The notes: a model not told the origin generated them from the sequence alone. 64,000 nucleotides of DNA from an uncultured Eubacteriales bacterium (GCA_900317905.1 ONIN01000009.1:97133-161132), one strand, 5' to 3'; counted from the first letter of the stretch, positions 23,684-30,967 are shown. Program-made: numbers and translations.

Positions 23684-25186
23684 ATGAGCGAAGAAAAGAA
23701 CAACCAGACCCCCGCACCGGAGCAGGATCTCTCTGAGCTGCTGCAGATCCGCCGTGACAAGCTCAAGGCCCTGCAGGACGAGGGCCGCGACCCCTTCCAG
23801 CGCACCCGCTTTGTCAGAAGCGCCTGGTCCGAGGAGATCAAGGCTGATTTTGACGGCTTCAACGAAAAGACCGTCCAGGTGGCGGGCCGCATCATGTCCA
23901 AGAGAGGCATGGGCAAGGCCATCTTCTGCCACATCCAGGACGACAAGGGCCAGATCCAGCTCTACATCCGCAAGGACGCAGTCACCGAGCAGGAGTTTAT
24001 GGACTTCCGCAAGTACGACATCGGTGACATCATCGGCGTCAGCGGCTTCGTGTTCCAGACCAAGACCGGCGAGATCAGCGTCCACGTGGAATCCGTGGAG
24101 CTGCTGAGTAAGTCCCTGCGTCCCCTGCCGGAGAAGTTTCACGGCATGACCAGCACGGAGCTGAAGTACCGCCAGCGGTACGTGGATCTGATCATGAGCC
24201 GCGAGAGCCGCCGCAACTTCGAGATCCGCAGCGCCTTCATCCGCCACGTCCGCAAGTATCTGGACGACCACGGCTACATGGAGGTGGAGACCCCGGTGCT
24301 GAACACCATCTCCGGCGGCGCCACCGCGCGACCCTTCATCACCCACCACAACACTCTGGACATGGACATGTACCTGCGCATCGCCACCGAGCTGAACCTG
24401 AAGCGGCTCATCGTCGGCGGCATCGAGCGGGTTTATGAGATCGGCCGCATCTTCCGCAACGAGGGCATGGACACCAAGCACAACCCCGAGTTCACCACCG
24501 TGGAGCTCTACCAGTCCTACGCCGATTTCAACGATATGATGGATCTGTTTGAGGAGCTTCTGAGCTCCGCCGCCAAGGAGATCGTCGGCAGTTATCAGCT
24601 CCAGTGGCAGGATCACGACATCGATCTGACCCCCGGCTGGCCCAGACTCACCATGGCCGAGGCCGTGAAGAAGTACGTGGGCGTGGACTTCATGGAGATC
24701 ACCGACGACGCCGAGGCCGTGGCCGCTGCCAAGACTGCCGGCGTGGACATGGAAAAGGTGGAACCCACCTGGGGCCACGCGCTGTATGAGTGCTTCGACC
24801 AGAAGGTGGAAGAGCAGCTGATCCAGCCCGCCTTCATCACCATGCATCCGGTGGACGTCTCCCCCCTCGCCAAGCGGAGCCCCAAGGATCCCCGTCTCAC
24901 CGAGCGGTTCGAGCTCTTCATCTGCCACAGCGAGATGGGCAACGCCTTCTCGGAGCTCAACGACCCCATCGACCAGCGCCAGCGCTTCCAGAAGCAGGTG
25001 GAGCTGCGTGCCAAGGGCGACGATGAGGCCGGTATGATGGATGAGGACTTCATCAATGCGCTGGAGTACGGCATGCCCCCCACCGGCGGCCTGGGCATCG
25101 GCATCGACCGCTGCGTGATGCTCCTCTGCGGCGTGAACTCCATCCGCGACGTGATTCTGTTCCCGACGATGAAGCCGGAATCCTGA
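23684..25186 (+). CDS. lysS: lysine--tRNA ligase (class II)
   Basis: 500 aa; OB-fold N-terminus, class II motifs YRQRYVDL, FRNEG and GLGIGIDR. Confidence 0.95.
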   Translation: MSEEKNNQTPAPEQDLSELLQIRRDKLKALQDEGRDPFQRTRFVRSAWSEEIKADFDGFNEKTVQVAGRIMSKRGMGKAIFCHIQDDKGQIQLYIRKDAVTEQEFMDFRKYDIGDIIGVSGFVFQTKTGEISVHVESVELLSKSLRPLPEKFHGMTSTELKYRQRYVDLIMSRESRRNFEIRSAFIRHVRKYLDDHGYMEVETPVLNTISGGATARPFITHHNTLDMDMYLRIATELNLKRLIVGGIERVYEIGRIFRNEGMDTKHNPEFTTVELYQSYADFNDMMDLFEELLSSAAKEIVGSYQLQWQDHDIDLTPGWPRLTMAEAVKKYVGVDFMEITDDAEAVAAAKTAGVDMEKVEPTWGHALYECFDQKVEEQLIQPAFITMHPVDVSPLAKRSPKDPRLTERFELFICHSEMGNAFSELNDPIDQRQRFQKQVELRAKGDDEAGMMDEDFINALEYGMPPTGGLGIGIDRCVMLLCGVNSIRDVILFPTMKPES

Positions 25187-25222
25187 TCGGCAGATAAAAA
25201 CATATTGATTCTCAATGCTTTA

Positions 25223-25256
25223 CGGGCTCTCGCAAGTTTGCGAGAGCCCGTTTTTA
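25223..25256 (+). terminator. lysS intrinsic terminator
   Basis: 13-bp stem CGGGCTCTCGCAA / TTGCGAGAGCCCG followed by TTTTT. Confidence 0.85.
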
Positions 25257-25273
25257 CGACAGTTTTACGACAG
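25252..25273 (+). repeat. tandem 11-nt duplication TTTTACGACAG x2 at the lysS/integrase junction
   Basis: Two exact adjacent copies. The first copy starts inside the terminator T-run; the integrase stop codon is only 22 nt further on. Confidence 0.9.
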
Positions 25274-25294: not shown

Positions 25295-26563
25295 TCAACT
25301 GATTCTGATTTTGCCTTCCAAATTCGCGAAGCTCTCCAATTTCTTTTCCTTGGTCGCTTCGTTATAGACGTCCATGGTGGTGGAGATGCTGGCGTGTCCC
25401 ATGATCTCCTGAATGACCTTCAGGTTGGTCTCATTTTCGCAGAACCTTGTACAGAATGTGTGCCGCAGATGGTGGGCACTGAAGTGCGGCAGCAGGAGCG
25501 GTTCCCTGTTCTCCTTTTCTGCCTTGGCTGTTTCCTCGGCGTTGTAGGCGTTGCTGATGCTGACGATCGCACGGTTCAGGCAATGAGGCGACATCGGGTT
25601 GCCAAACCGATTACTGAAGATGAAGCCCGTGTAGCCGTCGATCACAAAGTCGTTAAAGCCCATCATTCTCTGTCTGGCAAACTCCCGCCGCAGCGTGTCG
25701 CGGACGTCGTTCAGCATCGGGATCTGTCGGACGCCGGAGCGGGTCTTTGGCGTCGTGACGTGAAAGCGCATGGAGCCGTCGTCCTGCTGCCTGTAGATCA
25801 GAGCGTGGTCGATAGTGATGATATTTTCGTTGAAATTGCAGTCCTCCCAGCGGAGTCCCAGCGCCTCACCGATGCGGCAGCCGGTACCCAGCAGCAATGT
25901 GATCAGCGGCAGCCAGCGGGCGTATTTTTTGGAGCCCGCAACATAGCTGACGAAGGCCTCCTGCTCCGGTACGGTCAGAGCCTTGCGCTTGGTCTTTTCC
26001 CAACCAAATGATCGTTTGATCTCCGCGATGGCGCCATTGGTCGGGTTGATGCGGATCAGGCCGTCCCGCACAGCGTTCTCAAAAACCGGGTGCAGGATCG
26101 TCTGGAACGTCTCGATGCTGTTGGGCTTGAAACCGAGGTCGTGCATCAGGTGCACGTAGAAGCTTTTGATATCCGTGAAGTGGATGTTGGCGATCCGCTT
26201 CGTGCCCAGCTCGTAGCGGACAAATCGATCGTACATGTAAATGTAGTTGTTTCGTGTGGAGTCCTTCAGCTCCACCTTGCCAGAGATGTAGATTTCAAAG
26301 AGCTCGTTCAGCGTCGTGCGCTGGGATTCTACGGTGTCGATCCAGTCCTCCTTATCCAGGAGGATCTGTTTCTCCAGCTCCCGGAGAGATGTGCCTTTTT
26401 TCTTCCCCGGCGGCGTCCGATCCGTTTCCACCAGCCGCCAGCTGTAGACAGAGTGCCTGTCCCCTCTCCGGTCGGTGAACTTGTACTCGTAGCGTCCGTC
26501 GCTCCGCTGGAACTCGTTGTCCTTCAGATTCCGCCCCTTGTCGTCCTTGCGTTTCTCTGCCAT
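25295..26563 (-). CDS. int: tyrosine-type site-specific integrase (Tn916 Int-like)
   Basis: 422 aa. N-terminus RKDDKGRNLKDNEFQRSDGRYEYKF resembles the Int-Tn arm-binding domain. Full catalytic set present: GCRIGE (Arg), TPKTRSG (Lys), HHLRHTF (His-x-x-Arg), GHAS, DVYNE (Tyr). Confidence 0.92.
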   Translation of the reverse strand: MAEKRKDDKGRNLKDNEFQRSDGRYEYKFTDRRGDRHSVYSWRLVETDRTPPGKKKGTSLRELEKQILLDKEDWIDTVESQRTTLNELFEIYISGKVELKDSTRNNYIYMYDRFVRYELGTKRIANIHFTDIKSFYVHLMHDLGFKPNSIETFQTILHPVFENAVRDGLIRINPTNGAIAEIKRSFGWEKTKRKALTVPEQEAFVSYVAGSKKYARWLPLITLLLGTGCRIGEALGLRWEDCNFNENIITIDHALIYRQQDDGSMRFHVTTPKTRSGVRQIPMLNDVRDTLRREFARQRMMGFNDFVIDGYTGFIFSNRFGNPMSPHCLNRAIVSISNAYNAEETAKAEKENREPLLLPHFSAHHLRHTFCTRFCENETNLKVIQEIMGHASISTTMDVYNEATKEKKLESFANLEGKIRIS

Positions 26564-26573
26564 GGCAGCCCTC

Positions 26574-26915
26574 TCAGATGTCGTTGTACCGATCCAGGAA
26601 CTCTTCGAAGGCTTCCCGCTTGATCAGGGCCCGGCTGCCGTTGTGAAGCGCGTAGGGCGCGTCGGGGTTGTCTCTGAGGATCTCCCGCAGCTTGGTTTCG
26701 CCGATGGAAAAGTAATCCGAAGCATCCTTGATGCTCAGCGCGTACTTTTTCCACACCGGAACATTTTCGGTCTTCAGTCGCTCCGCGGTCTCCTGCATGA
26801 TCTCCTTGAGCTCCCGGAGGCTCCTCGGCATCACCACGTCCGCTGGATTGATTTGATGATACTCTCTGTAGTCATCACGTCGGTATGCAGTTCTGTTAAT
26901 CGTATTGTTTCTCAT
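26574..26915 (-). CDS. xis: excisionase (Tn916 Xis-like) with N-terminal extension
   Basis: The C-terminal 65 aa (VPVWKKYALSIKDASDYFSIGETKLREIL...NGSRALIKREAFEEFLD) parallel Tn916 Xis. The ATG at 26915 has AGGAGG 6 nt upstream, so the 113-aa form is kept. Confidence 0.85.
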   Translation of the reverse strand: MRNNTINRTAYRRDDYREYHQINPADVVMPRSLRELKEIMQETAERLKTENVPVWKKYALSIKDASDYFSIGETKLREILRDNPDAPYALHNGSRALIKREAFEEFLDRYNDI

Positions 26916-27045
26916 AAAAATCCTCCTAAAAATCTGATTTATTTCCGCTTGCCAGAAAGGAATTGGATGCGGTTATTGTTATGATATACTCTCCTCCGCC
27001 GGATGGGTTTTCGCCGATTTCATCACCTCCCTGATCATCCTGTTT

Positions 27046-27088
27046 AAAGCAGAAACTAGGCAAGCACCAATCAATTAAGCTTGCCTAG
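27046..27088 (-). terminator. hairpin terminator of the recombinase-like gene
   Basis: 10-bp stem CTAGGCAAGC (27056-27065) / GCTTGCCTAG (27079-27088). On the minus strand it is followed by TTTCTGCTTT. Confidence 0.6.
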
Positions 27089-27105
27089 TCTACTATGTAT
27101 GCGAT
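27071..27105. repeat. left copy of a ~36-bp imperfect inverted repeat
   Basis: TCAATTAAGCTTGCC-TAGTCT-ACTATGTATGCGAT. Matches the reverse complement of 29182..29218 in two collinear perfect blocks of 15 and 14 nt. Confidence 0.85.
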
Positions 27106-27138
27106 ACCCGGTGGAGGGTTAGAAGTATTCAGTTGTTG

Positions 27139-28068
27139 TCAAACCCGGAAAGCCTCTTTCCAGAGTTCGTAATCTCGCGCCATGTCCCTGGCCTGCGCCA
27201 CAAGATTATGCTGCATTGGTTCGGCTCCGCCGTTCCTGTGCATGATGATGCGCCTGACAATAGGACGGAAGCTTGGCTGCATTCCGATCTGTTCCCGCTG
27301 AAGCGTTCGGTAATACAAGCCGGAAAGCCGGATGGACGAGATGGTCGGCGGATTATCTTCGTCTGGCAAGGCGTTCAGTCTCACCCCAATGCGAGCTCTG
27401 AAACTCTTGATTGTCGTCTGGCCGTGAACGCCACGGAGCAGCGTGTCCCCCGGGACTCTCTCGCGAACGATCACATTTTTGTATTTTGGATGCTTATAAT
27501 TGAAATGGTCTTTCTCTACGAGCCACTCGAAATCTGGGATCGCTTCCCTGCAGATCTCAAACTCCTCGCCGCCGGTCTTGATAATCAGCCTCGATAAACT
27601 AACATCGGATGTTTTCACGTCGATCGCCTGATCCTCGAACATCCCAAAGTACGCCATCCAAAGATACGCGCGGTATATGATATGGATCGTACCCTCGCTG
27701 GTGTCGTCGAAGCGTTCGTTCAGGAGCTTCAGCATATGCTGCGGGTTCGCCAGCATCCGTTTCCGGTACGGTTCCAGATCCTTCATGTCGAGCTGATCCG
27801 TCAGGTCGTTCGCTCCTTCGACGCCTTGAGAAATACACCATCTGCAGTAGGTTCTTAACGCGGTTTGCGCTGTGACCCTTGATACGGTCTTGTTGCCGGA
27901 AACCAGCTTGAATACCCCTGTGAGTTCCTCCAGAGTCATTTGGCAAATATCCTTCGAAGCCGCCTCCTCTAACGGCTCTGTCCTTTCAAATAGCCACGTT
28001 AACCACCGCCGTCTGGAATCTTTGTCTTCCAGTTCTATGTACTGGAATTTTAAGGATTCGTTGTACAT
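27139..28068 (-). CDS. tyrosine-recombinase-fold protein with degenerate active site (MrpR/YopR-like repressor candidate)
   Basis: Start moved to MYNESLKF (GAGGTG 5 nt upstream), because the track extension to 28128 runs through its own promoter. It has a core-binding-like N-terminus and a catalytic-domain-like C-terminus. However, the Arg-I position reads YFGMFEDQ and the HxxR position reads SSIRLSG. Confidence 0.65.
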   Translation of the reverse strand: MYNESLKFQYIELEDKDSRRRWLTWLFERTEPLEEAASKDICQMTLEELTGVFKLVSGNKTVSRVTAQTALRTYCRWCISQGVEGANDLTDQLDMKDLEPYRKRMLANPQHMLKLLNERFDDTSEGTIHIIYRAYLWMAYFGMFEDQAIDVKTSDVSLSRLIIKTGGEEFEICREAIPDFEWLVEKDHFNYKHPKYKNVIVRERVPGDTLLRGVHGQTTIKSFRARIGVRLNALPDEDNPPTISSIRLSGLYYRTLQREQIGMQPSFRPIVRRIIMHRNGGAEPMQHNLVAQARDMARDYELWKEAFRV

Positions 28069-28099
28069 GGTGGCACCTCGTTTCCTAGCATCTGGACAC

Positions 28100-28132
28100 A
28101 TTATAGCATACGGCATCCAACTTGTCAAGTTG
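28100..28132 (-). promoter_or_regulatory. perfect consensus promoter TTGACA-17-TATAAT with overlapping palindromic operator
   Basis: Minus strand: -35 at 28123-28128, -10 at 28100-28105. The palindrome CAACTTG-T-CAAGTTG (28118-28132) covers the -35 box. Confidence 0.75.
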
Positions 28133-28500
28133 TTTTTTCAGTCCTTTTTAAGAAAAATTTATGGTGCGTTTATAGAAATATGCCCTTTGTTCAGTTAGTA
28201 GTTCTCGTACGTATCACAGCAGATGACACCGCCGAGCTCAGGATATTTCCTCCTTTGGAGTCATTTCGGTATTCCCCCTCTAAACAACCTCAGAAACACC
28301 AGCACAGCGAAATCTGAGAATATCATTGAAATTTAAGGAATTTTTGATCGACAGGTTGCCAAAAGATAGCTTGTTATTTCTATCAGAATTGTCGCTCAAG
28401 TAGCTGGAAATCATCACAAAGCTCTTTGGTTCCACGAAATATCACTAAAATCTATGGCTTCACAAAACATCCTCAGATTAAGAGAACTGCAGTAACGCTC

Positions 28501-28529
28501 TTGACATTCGGAATTAATTCTGCTATTAT
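28501..28529 (+). promoter_or_regulatory. near-consensus promoter TTGACA-17-TATTAT
   Basis: TTGACA at 28501-28506, TATTAT at 28524-28529. The spacer contains the 10-bp palindrome GAATTAATTC (28511-28520). No credible ORF follows. Confidence 0.7.
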
Positions 28530-28639
28530 TTCATAGTGTATTTACAGTCCTCTTTTCGGCGCTGCAATCCATGTCGAATCTTTTCGCTGGCAAGTCTGCT
28601 GACCATGTGATCGGCATCTGAAAATTCTAAAAGCCGTAT

Positions 28640-28708
28640 GACCCCCGCACAGGCCGCGCAAGTGGCATATAGAGGGAGACCCCCGCAACCCGGCAGCCCG
28701 GCATATAG
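28640..28708 (+). repeat. two tandem sub-repeats GACCCCCGCA-(small hairpin)-GGCATATAG
   Basis: Copy A is 28640-28672 (internal CCGC-GCAA-GTGG hairpin). Copy B is 28678-28708 (internal CCGG-CAGC-CCGG). Confidence 0.8.
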
Positions 28709-28780
28709 TACGAAAGGATGAAACAGAGAACATTAGTTATTTCTCCATATTAAAAACCATATCAATTGCTAAGTGAATGC

Positions 28781-29093
28781 TGTAACAGCCGTACTTATGG
28801 AACCTTGTCTGTGAGGTGTCCGTCGCTGTGCGACTCACATCCAAGGTTGGTTGCAGACTATACTAGTAATGAGGGGGAACGGAAATCATCCTTGATGAAA
28901 AGACATTGTAACTGTATAACGATACTTATGGCAGACTTGTCTGCGAGGCATCGCATCCAAGTCTGGTTGCCTGCTGTGCTTCGTTGGCAATAATCTTGAT
29001 ACACACAATTTGTAAAGGTCCTCATCGTACTTATTGCACCTCGTCTGCGAAGTGTCCGTCACTTCGTGACTCGCATCCGAGGAAGATTGTAAA
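28781..29093 (+). repeat. three tandem ~80-125-nt structured units, each opening with TGTAA(C/A)
   Basis: Units start at 28781, 28907 and 29011, with a closing TGTAAA at 29088. Shared blocks are TACTTAT(G/T)G, TCTG(T/C)GA(G/A)G and TC(A/G)CATCC. The outer helices differ in sequence but stay complementary. Confidence 0.85.
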
Positions 29094-29181
29094 CGATTTA
29101 TTAATAATTGAAAATAGCCTTGCATTTTTGAATCTGTACTTTTAAAATGAAATCAAACAACATATCGTATCCCTGTACGTA

Positions 29182-29218
29182 ATCGCATACATAGTTGAAT
29201 TACGGCAAGCTTAATTGA
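29182..29218. repeat. right copy of the ~36-bp imperfect inverted repeat
   Basis: ATCGCATACATAGT-TGAATTAC-GGCAAGCTTAATTGA. Similarity to the left copy stops at 29219, where the sequence becomes GC-rich. Confidence 0.85.
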
Positions 29219-29819
29219 GTGCAGTGATAGATCTTATCTCAGGAGTGAAAAGGGCCTCATGGCCATTGCCCTCTATTTGGCCTGCTCCGCTGTCTGCGGC
29301 GGCATCTCCACGGTGATCGTGCTGCCCTGGTTCAAAGCCACCTACGACAACGGCGAATACATGTACATGCTGGTCTGGGGCATGGCCCTGGTGGGCAGAG
29401 CCCTGGGCGGGCTGGTGCATTATCGGGTCAAAATTCCCCCGGAGCACCGGTATCAGATCGCCCTCGCGGTGTACATTGTGATCTCGATTCTGGAGGGCGT
29501 CTATCTCTTCACGCCGATCCCCGTGATGATGGTCATGTGCTTCCTCGTGGGCGTCGGCGGCATCACAAGCTATACCATCCGCATCTCCGCCACCCAGAGC
29601 TATGTGCCTGATGAACGAAAGGGACGCTTCAACGGTGCCTTCAATATGCTCTCCACCGCCGGTGCCCTGGTTGGTGAAGTGCTGGCGGGCTCGCTGACAC
29701 TCATTATGTCGGAGCGTGTGGTGCTGCTGGTGGCCATGCTGCTCTGTGCGCTGGCCGCGGTGGTGTTCATCGGCGGAGGAAAAGAGCACGTGTCGTATAT
29801 TTACAACAGGACTCAATAA
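29199..29819 (+). pseudogene. MFS transporter, C-terminal half only (5'-truncated)
   Basis: The frame is open from 29199 and the ORF runs 29259..29819 (186 aa, about 6 TM). It carries an MFS second-half loop motif, PDERKGRFNGAFNM. There is no N-terminal six-helix half and no RBS. Confidence 0.6.
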
Positions 29820-29820
29820 C

Positions 29821-29855
29821 AAAAAACCCCGCTTCCGAGTGAAGCGGGGTTTTTC
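29821..29855. terminator. bidirectional terminator between the MFS fragment and rplT
   Basis: AAAAAACCCCGCTTC-CGAGT-GAAGCGGGGTTTTT. Confidence 0.85.
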
Positions 29856-29872
29856 TTATTCAATCTATTCGA

Positions 29873-30157
29873 TCAAAGGGCAGCCTTGGCCTGCTCGCAG
29901 AGAGCGGTGAAGGCGGCGGGATCGTGGATCGCAGTCTCGGACAGCATCTTGCGGTTCATGTCGATACCGGCGAGCTTCAGACCGTGCATGAAGGTGGAAT
30001 AGTTCATGCCGTTGGCCTTGCAGCCGGCGCTGATGCGGGTGATCCAGAGCTGGCGGAAGTCTCTCTTCTTCTGCTTGCGGCCGACGTAAGCGTAACGGCC
30101 GGACTTCATGACCTGCTCGTTGGCCATCTTGAAGTGGCGGGACTTGGTAACGATCAC
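29873..30157 (-). CDS. rplT: 50S ribosomal protein L20, lacking the N-terminal ~25 residues
   Basis: 94-aa ORF (GTG start) aligning by eye to L20 from about residue 26 onward ([38 protein letters not shown]...). The usual MARVK...LAKGYYG segment is absent. The rpmI stop lies in the same frame only 15 nt upstream. Confidence 0.8.
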
Positions 30158-30180
30158 AAATAAGCCTGCAGCTTATTTGT
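30156..30180. repeat. perfect 10-bp inverted repeat ACAAATAAGC-CTGCA-GCTTATTTGT at the rpmI/rplT junction
   Basis: One arm contains the rpmI stop codon and the other contains the rplT GTG. The centre holds a CTGCAG site. Confidence 0.9.
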
Positions 30181-30370
30181 AGGGAATCATTTTCTTGATG
30201 GTGGCGTCGTTCGTCTTGTCAGCGTAGGTGGTGCTGCGCAGACGACGGCAGCGCTTGGTGTCCTTCTTGGTGAGGATATGGCTCTTGTAAGCGTGGGCGC
30301 GTTTGACCTTGCCGGTCTTGGTGAGATTGAATCTCTTCTTCGCACCGGAATGCGATTTCAGCTTGGGCAT
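30173..30370 (-). CDS. rpmI: 50S ribosomal protein L35
   Basis: 65 aa; [14 protein letters not shown] is the L35 signature. Confidence 0.95.
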
Positions 30371-30439
30371 GATGAATTTCTCCTTCCGTTGGGTTGATCT
30401 ATCTGGCTCTCAGAGGCGCTCTGCCTCCAAAGAAATAGA

Positions 30440-30967
30440 TTACTGCTTCTTGTTCTGGGGCTTCGGGCTCAGGAACATGGACATGTTGCGGCCCTCCAGC
30501 TTGGGCTGCTTGTCGAGGTTCGCGATCTCGGCGCAGGCCTCGGCGAATTTGTGCAGCAACTGCTCGCCGATGTTGGTGTGGGCCATCTCGCGGCCGCGGA
30601 AGCGGATCGTCACCTTCAGACGGTCGCCGTCGCGCAGGAACTTCTGGCCGTTCTTGAGCTTGGTATTGAAATCGTTCTCGCCGATGCTGGGCGACATACG
30701 GATCTCCTTCACCTCAATGACGTGCTGATTTTTCTTTGCTTCCTTTTCCCGCTTGGACTGCTCAAAGCGATACTTGCCGTAGTCCATGATCTTACACACG
30801 GGCGGATTGGAGCCCGGCGCGATCTTCACGAGATCCAGATCCCGCTCCTCGGCGATGGCAAGCGCCTCGTCGGAGGACATGATGCCAAGCTGCGCGCCGT
30901 CTTCCCCGATGACACGAAGCTCCTTGTCGCGGATCTCGTCATTGATCTGATAGTTTACCGTTGCGAT
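30440..30967 (-). CDS. infC: translation initiation factor IF-3
   Basis: INDEIRDKELRVIGEDGAQLGI... is classic IF-3. The track ORF has a non-homologous N-terminal extension. I place the start at the in-frame ATC (30965-30967), 9 nt after GGAGG, since IF-3 genes typically use atypical AUU/AUC-type starts. The exact start is uncertain. Confidence 0.85.
   Translation of the reverse strand: MATVNYQINDEIRDKELRVIGEDGAQLGIMSSDEALAIAEERDLDLVKIAPGSNPPVCKIMDYGKYRFEQSKREKEAKKNQHVIEVKEIRMSPSIGENDFNTKLKNGQKFLRDGDRLKVTIRFRGREMAHTNIGEQLLHKFAEACAEIANLDKQPKLEGRNMSMFLSPKPQNKKQ

Follow-up and report, generated by a model that had tools for sequence, protein, structure and literature searches.

The DNA analyzed here is a stretch of 64,000 nucleotides (nt) from an uncultured Eubacteriales bacterium (GCA_900317905.1, ONIN01000009.1:97133-161132), referred to below as the window, and the element in question is an imperfect inverted repeat in its middle part. 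From left to right, the locus holds lysS and its terminator, a Tn916-type integrase gene and an excisionase gene (int and xis), a gene for a 309-amino acid (aa) protein related to MrpR, YopR and SroF, ~1.1 kb of non-coding DNA, the C-terminal half of a major facilitator superfamily (MFS) gene, and rplT, rpmI and infC. The two arms of the repeat enclose the 309-aa gene and an array of structured RNA units in the non-coding stretch. G+C content falls from ~0.6 to 0.38-0.55 between ~25150 and ~29200, and the locus is a deletion-decayed, phage-derived island at the 3' end of lysS. An earlier reading of the sequence (the original prediction) had offered three explanations for the repeat: recombination sites of an invertible segment, terminal repeats of a nested mobile unit, or a duplicated terminator or 3'-end cassette. 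The explanation preferred here, to which a probability of roughly 0.6 is assigned, is that the arms are a duplicated 3'-end sequence located at the ends of two divergent transcripts. Coordinates of all features are collected in Table 1.

Sequence and extent of the inverted repeat

Each arm contains an exact 14-nt block (box A) and an exact 15-nt block (box B) separated by a short spacer. The left arm reads TCAATTAAGCTTGCC (27071-27085), TAGTCT and ACTATGTATGCGAT (27092-27105), and the right arm reads ATCGCATACATAGT (29182-29195), TGAATTAC (29196-29203) and GGCAAGCTTAATTGA (29204-29218). These letters agree exactly with the two inverted, collinear blocks of 15 and 14 nt quoted in the original prediction, and a repeat search widens the pair to 27068-27105 and 29182-29221. 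The central spacers are unlike, with TAGTCT (6 nt) on the left versus GTAATTCA (8 nt) on the right. When up to 2 mismatches were allowed, box A and box B were each found only at their two arm sites in the 64-kb window, compared with a chance expectation of ~0.1. Local alignment of one arm against the other gave a score of 51, while ~1,900 random 200-nt pieces of the window scored 16.1 +/- 2.4 and at most 28. The existence of the repeat is thereby confirmed, at a level far above chance. Under relaxed scoring, the score hardly rises when the flanks are included, and the repeat is accordingly ~37-40 nt long with sharp borders.

The right copy had been described as losing similarity exactly where the truncated MFS frame begins. 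Arm similarity does stop at ~29218-29221, but island DNA continues to ~29237, and this DNA beyond the arm is shared with three related islands (L245, L246 and L247). Because homology to MFS genes is found from ~29232, the end of the repeat is not equivalent to the junction between island and MFS sequence.

Predicted terminators at the two arms

In the RNA sense, box B of the left arm comprises the 5' stem half and the loop of a predicted intrinsic terminator. The stem of this hairpin is 11 nt long and 100% complementary, and it starts 50 nt past the stop codon of the 309-aa gene. The hairpin that had been proposed at this position is thus real, with a folding free energy (dG) of -28.1 kcal/mol (z = -3.3) in the window and of -31.8 kcal/mol (z = -5.5) in the phage contig L003, where the orthologous stem is longer than that of the window and is followed by a U7 tail. 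After the stem, the window has the tail UUUCUGCUUU as opposed to U7-U8 in the phage orthologues, a difference that arises because phage homology ends at the stem. The 13-nt loop is unusually large and identical in all copies; a simple terminator scan did not call the left site because this loop exceeds 8 nt.

Six metagenomic phage contigs (L003-L007 and L159) carry an orthologous gene that is 84-85% identical at the DNA level and is set among genes for a LexA-like CI repressor, a 106-aa protein and ERF. DNA homology between window and phages is confined to 27055-28158, which spans promoter, gene and terminator. Box A and box B occur once per phage contig, directly 3' of the gene. In the more distant phages L230 and L236, an unrelated intrinsic terminator lies between the MrpR-like gene and ERF, and no second copy of the 3' flank of the gene was found within 8 kb; likewise, no repeated boxes or second 3'-flank copies were found near the gene in the distant family phages L230, L235 and L236. 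Special conservation of the left arm was considered and dropped, since its 54-nt perfect run is only the second longest of three runs of >50 nt in the 1.1-kb phage alignment.

The segment 27055-28158 forms a self-contained promoter-gene-terminator cassette with sharp homology breakpoints relative to L003-L007, and its identity to the phages is patchy and includes stretches of 51-59 identical nt. The protein encoded in L245 is 90.6% identical to the phage version and 89.0% identical to the window version. The cassette borders, the patchy identity and the about equal closeness of the L245 protein to both versions suggest that the MrpR-like cassette has been exchanged between the island and infecting phages.

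The right arm could be placed in context by comparison with L245-L247, which were found via other members of the 90% clusters of the protein. They represent the same island at the same lysS site and match the window at 92-93% identity up to 28708. In all four variants (4/4), the right arm occupies the same place with the same extent, past the last RNA unit before the terminator. Its spacer (UGAAUUAC) pairs with GUAAU just upstream to give a small CGUAAU/AUUACG hairpin at 29178-29204, and this pairing of the spacer with 29178-29183 is invariant in 4/4 variants. Directly past box B, L245-L247 possess a strong intrinsic terminator (GAGYGCAGTGATAGATC, loop, GATCTA, TGCRCTC, T5CT4) with a dG of -29 to -32 kcal/mol and z = -2.6 to -4.8, and a compensatory T:A to C:G change is observed in its stem between variants. 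Beyond this terminator, a fourth RNA unit is followed by a gene for a YonV_C-like protein; the three units of the window all lie between the arms, and the fourth unit of L245-L247 is located outside the right arm.

The window retains only the 5' half of the array terminator, and it is without the gene for the N-terminal half of the MFS protein that is present in relatives; in L160 and L161, a 245- or 235-aa N-terminal half lies directly upstream of the 186-aa C-terminal half. MFS homology in the window starts at ~29232, within a hexamer that can be aligned to both partners. The sequence comparison indicates that a single TCTTA(T)-microhomology deletion took the 3' half of the array terminator, RNA unit 4, the YonV_C-like gene and the MFS N-terminal half, and that it cut the neighboring, non-homologous terminator and not the repeat. 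Given that the right arm ends at the same position in the undeleted islands L245-L247, it has not been clipped, and the intact right repeat that was to be looked for in relatives is no longer than that of the window.

The MFS sequence is also split at the same point into two open reading frames (ORFs) in the distant relatives L160 (7264-8561) and L161 (7276-8561). The 186-aa MFS ORF of the window may be a natural half-gene and not a fragment made by the deletion.

The boxes themselves vary among relatives. Right box B is degenerate in both L245 and L247 (GTTTAAGCTTAGTTGA), left box A is disrupted in L246 (AGTGCGTACATAATAGT), and left box B of L246 has G for A, which still allows G.U pairing in the terminator stem. 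Exact box A sequences occur in 4/4 right arms, 3/4 island left arms and 6/6 phage copies, and three of the four island variants have one degenerate box. Judged from these sequences, the box pair is not maintained among variants. The window shows zero differences in the 29 nt of the boxes where ~2 would be expected at 7-8% divergence, which by this estimate is not strong evidence of selection. Six assemblies (the window, L001, L002, L245, L246 and L247, from at least five samples) are all colinear, with the segment in the same orientation. The combined box pattern gave 0 matches in 185,579 GTDB species genomes and a single match in JGI metagenomes, the single-arm phage relative L159. Exact matches to box A (119) and box B (32) in IMG/VR were rejected, as all proved to be chance matches by BLAST against the region.

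The protein, the RNA array and the surrounding island

The 309-aa protein can be assigned with confidence, on the basis of sequence profiles and a structural model, to the MrpR/YopR/SroF family, with an MrpR-type N-terminal domain and a recombinase-like C-terminal domain. The Pfam domain MrpR_N_CB (PF22822), the MrpR N-terminal core-binding domain, was detected with E = 2e-14, and Pfam gave no match to the Phage_integrase domain. A full HMMER scan returned 1,022 clusters of ~315-aa relatives (50% identity clustering), and a profile of 39 relatives matched phi3T SroF (9rd5, 9rgl), SPbeta YopR (8bj6, 8bjv, 8bpz) and SPbeta MrpR (8a0a). The AlphaFold model reached a predicted local distance difference test score (pLDDT) of 93.2. 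In a Foldseek search with this model, MrpR, YopR and SroF chains ranked first, the best being DNA-bound SroF with a template modeling (TM) score of 0.61, and true recombinases (Tn1549 Int, XerA, XerD, lambda Int and Cre) ranked below them. At the sequence level, the protein shares only 13-15% identity with MrpR and SroF.

Of the catalytic residues, Arg I is replaced by F144 and the box II His position by S244/S245, and neither column is conserved in the family; Y300 is retained and invariant in the family. The same pattern of catalytic residues is found in MrpR (Table 3 of PMC10516654). Since Arg I and the box II His are lost, catalysis of inversion or excision is very unlikely, and the protein is predicted to be a dead recombinase that binds DNA. 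MrpR and SroF are master repressors of SPbeta-type phages with a recombinase fold and no recombinase activity, and MrpR binds a repeated 15-bp element at ten SPbeta sites, in promoter regions (PMC10516654). The SroF monomer binds a 24-26-bp non-palindromic box at many distant sites (bioRxiv 10.1101/2025.11.27.690993).

The MrpR-like family is also present in L230-L236 (phage contigs of ~30-160 kb), where it belongs to a conserved early/replication module. Gene order in these distant phages is PemK-like toxin, MrpR-like, terminator, ERF, PDDEXK nuclease, DnaB, DnaG and PolIII-alpha, with the MrpR-like gene co-directional with the replication genes. TBLASTN searches for the 309-aa family against INPHARED phages and PLSDB plasmids gave no match.

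Two consensus promoters point away from each other at the locus. One precedes the 309-aa gene and falls within the phage-shared segment. The other corresponds to the strong promoter at 28501 of the original prediction, which was found as described, with an 11/12 match and a TG element, and its region is 92-93% conserved in L245-L247. No consensus promoter for xis-int was found in the promoter scan.

The putative transcript from the 28501 site contains the RNA array. Alignment of nine units from the four variants gave a three-tier hairpin in which 95% of cells are paired, compared with 24-37% in slid controls, and five base pairs change on both sides. None of 500 shuffles reached the observed percentage paired, either count of compensatory changes or the covariation score (four of the five measures). 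The remaining measure, the count of further pair types, was reached by 486/500 and so does not exceed shuffles. Given that the whole 700-nt stretch folds no better than shuffles, the fold signal resides within the units. By these alignments the array is a new structured RNA, with a fold backed by covariation. A covariance model applied to 42 sources found the units nowhere but in this island type, and RNA-unit patterns were absent from IMG/VR and gave eight chance matches in GTDB genomes. Searched by BLASTN, the array region had no match among INPHARED phages or PLSDB plasmids. An Rfam scan of 26000-30500 at a permissive threshold detected nothing at the arms or for the array, with only terminator-like noise at 29790-29900 and a weak chance match within unit 1.

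The number of units varies among island variants, as the relatives hold an extra upstream unit in addition to the fourth past the terminator. Two similar GC-rich motifs (GACCCCCGCACAGGCCGCGCAAGTGGCATATAG and GACCCCCGCAACCCGGCAGCCCGGCATATAG) lie at 28640-28720, upstream of unit 1 and within the presumed array transcript.

In the relatives, the arrangement of a strong promoter, tandem RNA units, an intrinsic terminator and a protein gene resembles a type III toxin-antitoxin locus (ToxIN). However, the units are ~55-70 nt long and spaced at ~105-130 nt, compared with ~36 nt in ToxI, and the downstream gene encodes a 436-500-aa YonV_C/phrog_2467 protein and not a ToxN-type ribonuclease (RNase). 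PADLOC gave no match. The downstream gene carries the source annotation PF27199 (YonV_C), matches phrog_2467 (unknown function), is co-directional with the 28501 promoter and gives a weak DEAD/AAA_22, P-loop/helicase-like signal. Literature, PDB and PADLOC provided no lead to the function of YonV.

The Tn916-type integrase beside the segment is probably competent. The left end of the island lies at ~25252 and is marked by two tandem copies of TTTTACGACAG (25252-25273), which separate the lysS terminator from the integrase 3' end and may be arm-type integrase binding sites. TTTTACGACAG occurs nowhere else in the window, nor was a matching right end identified; a search of L245 for attachment site (att)-like repeats at the far island end gave nothing convincing. 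Among relatives of the integrase in IMG/VR, an MrpR-like gene was found within 10 kb at 1/67 loci, which implies that it is not a regular partner of this int-xis pair.

At ~30146, in rplT, the window is without ~101 nt that are present in L001 (7823-7923), although the two contigs are otherwise 100% identical. The missing DNA comprises the ribosome-binding site of rplT (L20), its start codon and the first ~27 codons, leaving an ORF of 94 aa in the window versus 117 aa in L001. Either the assembly is in error here or an essential gene carries a deletion.

Table 1. Features of the locus in the window and, in the last rows, in related islands
Feature	Position	Strand	Remarks
lysS	23684-25186	+	
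lysS terminator	25222-25251		
Tn916-type integrase gene	25295-26563	-	
Excisionase gene	26574-26915	-	
Predicted intrinsic terminator hairpin	27055-27089	-	Stem ACTAGGCAAGC / GCTTGCCTAGT, 13-nt loop
Left arm	27068-27105	-	Box B 27071-27085, spacer 27086-27091, box A 27092-27105
309-aa MrpR/YopR/SroF-like gene	27139-28068	-	Predicted tyrosine-recombinase fold, catalytic residues lost
Promoter of 309-aa gene	28128-28100	-	Sigma-70-type consensus: TTGACA, 17 nt, TG-TATAAT; 12/12
Non-coding stretch	Between 309-aa gene and MFS fragment		~1.1 kb
Divergent promoter-like site	28501-28529	+	TTGACA, 17 nt, TATTAT, with TG; 11/12; would drive RNA array
RNA unit U1	28790-28856	+	Long hairpin with or without inner hairpin
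RNA unit U2	28920-28973	+	Long hairpin with or without inner hairpin
RNA unit U3	29026-29092	+	Long hairpin with or without inner hairpin
Right arm	29182-29221	+	Box A 29182-29195, spacer 29196-29203, box B 29204-29218
Array terminator remnant, 5' half	29217-29236	+	GAGTGCAGTGATAGATCTTA; no fold in window, z = +0.3
Deletion junction	29232-29237		Microhomology hexamer TCTTAT, alignable to both partners
MFS C-terminal half, 186 aa	29259-29819	+	Pfam MFS_1 profile positions 208-346
rplT, rpmI, infC	Right of MFS fragment	-	
RNA array in relatives	L245 8324-8903; L246 2300-2578; L247 2313-2609		
YonV_C-like gene, 436-500 aa	L245 6599-8101; L246 538-1848; L247 343-1845		Absent from window

Interpretation of the arm pair

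If the arms are a duplicated 3'-end sequence, they would be paralogous copies of ~37-40 nt in which box A (ATCGCATACATAGT) is followed by box B (GGCAAGCTTAATTGA) in the sense orientation. One copy would end the MrpR/SroF-like mRNA, with box B serving as the 5' stem and loop of its intrinsic terminator. The other would end the structured-RNA array transcribed from the 28501 promoter, with box B just before a different intrinsic terminator. The arms would be inverted because the two transcription units are divergent, and the spacers would be unlike because each belongs to an arm-specific RNA stem: the left spacer (AGACUA in RNA) would form the lower terminator stem and the right spacer the small CGUAAU/AUUACG hairpin. 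Each arm is oriented identically with respect to the transcript it belongs to, and is located either at an intrinsic terminator or immediately ahead of one. To this extent the duplicated 3'-end cassette of the original prediction is retained, but not its corollary of a clipped right copy. As a pair, the arms would have no role in inversion or transposition. We infer that the promoters and terminators are in use and that, taken as a pair, the two copies are functionally neutral.

The arms share several properties with ordinary intrinsic terminators. The left arm overlaps a GC-rich hairpin directly past a gene, with a U tract in the phage orthologues, and its position is conserved throughout the protein family; in the relatives, a second hairpin with a T tract adjoins the right arm. 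Short sequences that recur at module boundaries of phage and island DNA are likewise comparable. The two terminator hairpins, however, are non-homologous here, and what the arms share is box A, ahead of the hairpin, together with the 15 nt of box B, which belong to a stem-loop in one arm and to an unpaired leader in the other.

Several considerations weigh against a neutral duplication. The phage contigs are only 1.7-3.4 kb long, so the single-copy count holds for that length, and only six assemblies were compared, each of which reports the majority orientation. Transcript ends at the arm sites are predicted. In addition, a bound protein could be the constraint that keeps blocks of 14 and 15 nt exact on either side of an unlike spacer, and the family of the adjacent gene is known to bind long, asymmetric boxes that are scattered in both orientations.

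The last two points lead to the alternative that survives best, although it is itself rather unlikely: the boxes may be operators of the enclosed MrpR/SroF-like protein, a monomer of which, when bound, would act as a roadblock or termination aid at the end of each unit. Read-through into xis-int on the left and into the YonV_C-like gene on the right would thereby be stopped. Both structure and sequence relate the 309-aa protein with confidence to MrpR, YopR and SroF. A protein of their dead-recombinase fold is encoded between the arms, and the known boxes of that family are likewise long, asymmetric, repeated and found in either orientation. MrpR recognizes its repeated 15-bp element at ten SPbeta sites (PMC10516654), and the SroF monomer reads a non-palindromic box of 24-26 bp (bioRxiv 10.1101/2025.11.27.690993). 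The arms share polarity, each separates a strongly promoted unit from genes that a resident island should silence, and control of read-through is conceivable given that no consensus promoter was found for xis-int. The exactness of box A in all right arms, all phage copies and three of the four island left arms also favors an operator.

By contrast, the known boxes (SPBRE/SroF) lie in promoter regions at ~10 per phage, whereas only two are found here, at transcript ends, and neither strong promoter has a box. No other 9-mers of either arm and no weaker box copies were found elsewhere in the island. Only two box copies are present, and the island may have lost most of the original element. In the phage relatives, the main regulatory region (CI-like repressor and 106-aa gene) is likewise without a box, and these phages own a LexA-like CI repressor, so that a protein of the 309-aa type need not be their repressor. 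Spacing between the boxes is 6 or 8 nt, and this 2-bp difference between the arms is a poor fit to a monomer on a continuous site. Degeneration of one box in three of four variants, identity of only 13-15% to MrpR and SroF, and the lack of a repeated element near the gene in distant family members also argue against an operator, and binding would be by analogy.

A further parallel is provided by stoperators, known from mycobacteriophage L5 and from other phages of cluster A, where a repressor bound to asymmetric 13-bp sites that follow the direction of transcription blocks elongation. L5 has some 24-30 such sites and a helix-turn-helix repressor. The arms resemble these in being asymmetric, in having the same polarity relative to transcription and in lying at unit ends rather than at promoters, but there are only two of them and they are candidates by analogy. 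That the boxes are stoperator-like sites of the dead-recombinase regulator, which would bind in a single polarity where each strong divergent unit ends and block read-through to xis-int and to the YonV_C-like gene with its preceding RNA array, is accordingly offered as a tentative and rather unlikely proposal. If it were true, the arms would be control points of a small phage-derived, possibly satellite- or defense-like island, and an SPbeta-type repressor mechanism would extend to gut Clostridia and to the control of elongation.

It is improbable that the shared sequence is instead a functional RNA element at both transcript 3' ends, such as a protein or RNase site, a stability or processing signal or a small RNA (sRNA) derived from the 3' untranslated region. 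Both transcripts would hold the same sense sequence just before their terminators, the spacer in each arm is drawn into a local RNA stem, which argues that the arms are read as RNA, and the unusual 13-nt loop of the left terminator is identical in all copies. However, Rfam gave no match, and the two arms offer no common structure, as box B is single-stranded in one and forms a stem and loop in the other. Each box is invariant or has plainly decayed, which leaves no covariation to be assessed, and the decay in variants argues against strong constraint.

Very little speaks for the arms as sites of an invertible 2.1-kb segment that is flipped by the enclosed protein or the Tn916-type integrase and redirects the 28501 promoter. 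Here, the inverted repeat does enclose a recombinase-fold gene and a strong outward promoter, a probably competent integrase adjoins it, and integrases of the Tn916/Tn1549 family tolerate unlike crossover sequences. The arrangement also recalls fimS (FimB/FimE) and the RecV switches of Clostridioides difficile, in which short inverted repeats surround a promoter segment with a recombinase-fold gene at hand. Unlike those switches, the enclosed protein is catalytically degenerate, being without Arg I and the box II His, and MrpR itself showed no recombination activity (PMC10516654). The spacers differ in length and sequence, the arms are not maintained, with one box degenerate in three of the four variants, and phages that have a single arm conserve the left one as a terminator. 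The 28501 promoter moreover has a natural target in the relatives, namely the terminator, fourth unit and YonV_C-like gene. The original prediction had proposed a comparison of related genomes for the module in the other orientation or at another locus; L001, L002 and L245-L247 are all colinear with the window, and the invertible segment is set aside. A rare flip by the neighboring integrase would be missed in assemblies, which show the majority orientation, but nothing points to one.

Least probable of all is a small non-autonomous mobile unit nested in the island, which would be in keeping with the size and imperfect form of the repeats, typical of terminal inverted repeats, and with the nearby integrase and excisionase genes, but phage homology passes the left outer end and stops mid-unit, island homology passes the right outer end to ~29237, the flanks GCACCAA and GTGCAGT give no target-site duplication, the phages are single-armed, no variant lacks the segment, and no other copy was present in the window or GTDB genomes, with only chance matches in IMG/VR and one single-arm contig in JGI metagenomes.

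In summary, a recombinase-like gene and a promoter enclosed by an inverted repeat give the impression of a phase switch or a nested transposon, and comparison with ten related loci indicates neither. One microhomology deletion would account for both the MFS truncation and the loss of the array terminator. The interest of the locus lies in the surroundings of the repeat: a large MrpR-like protein family in uncultured phages, the boxes as possible binding sites of the 309-aa member, a new array of structured RNAs, and the small int-xis island in which the MrpR-like gene and the array reside.

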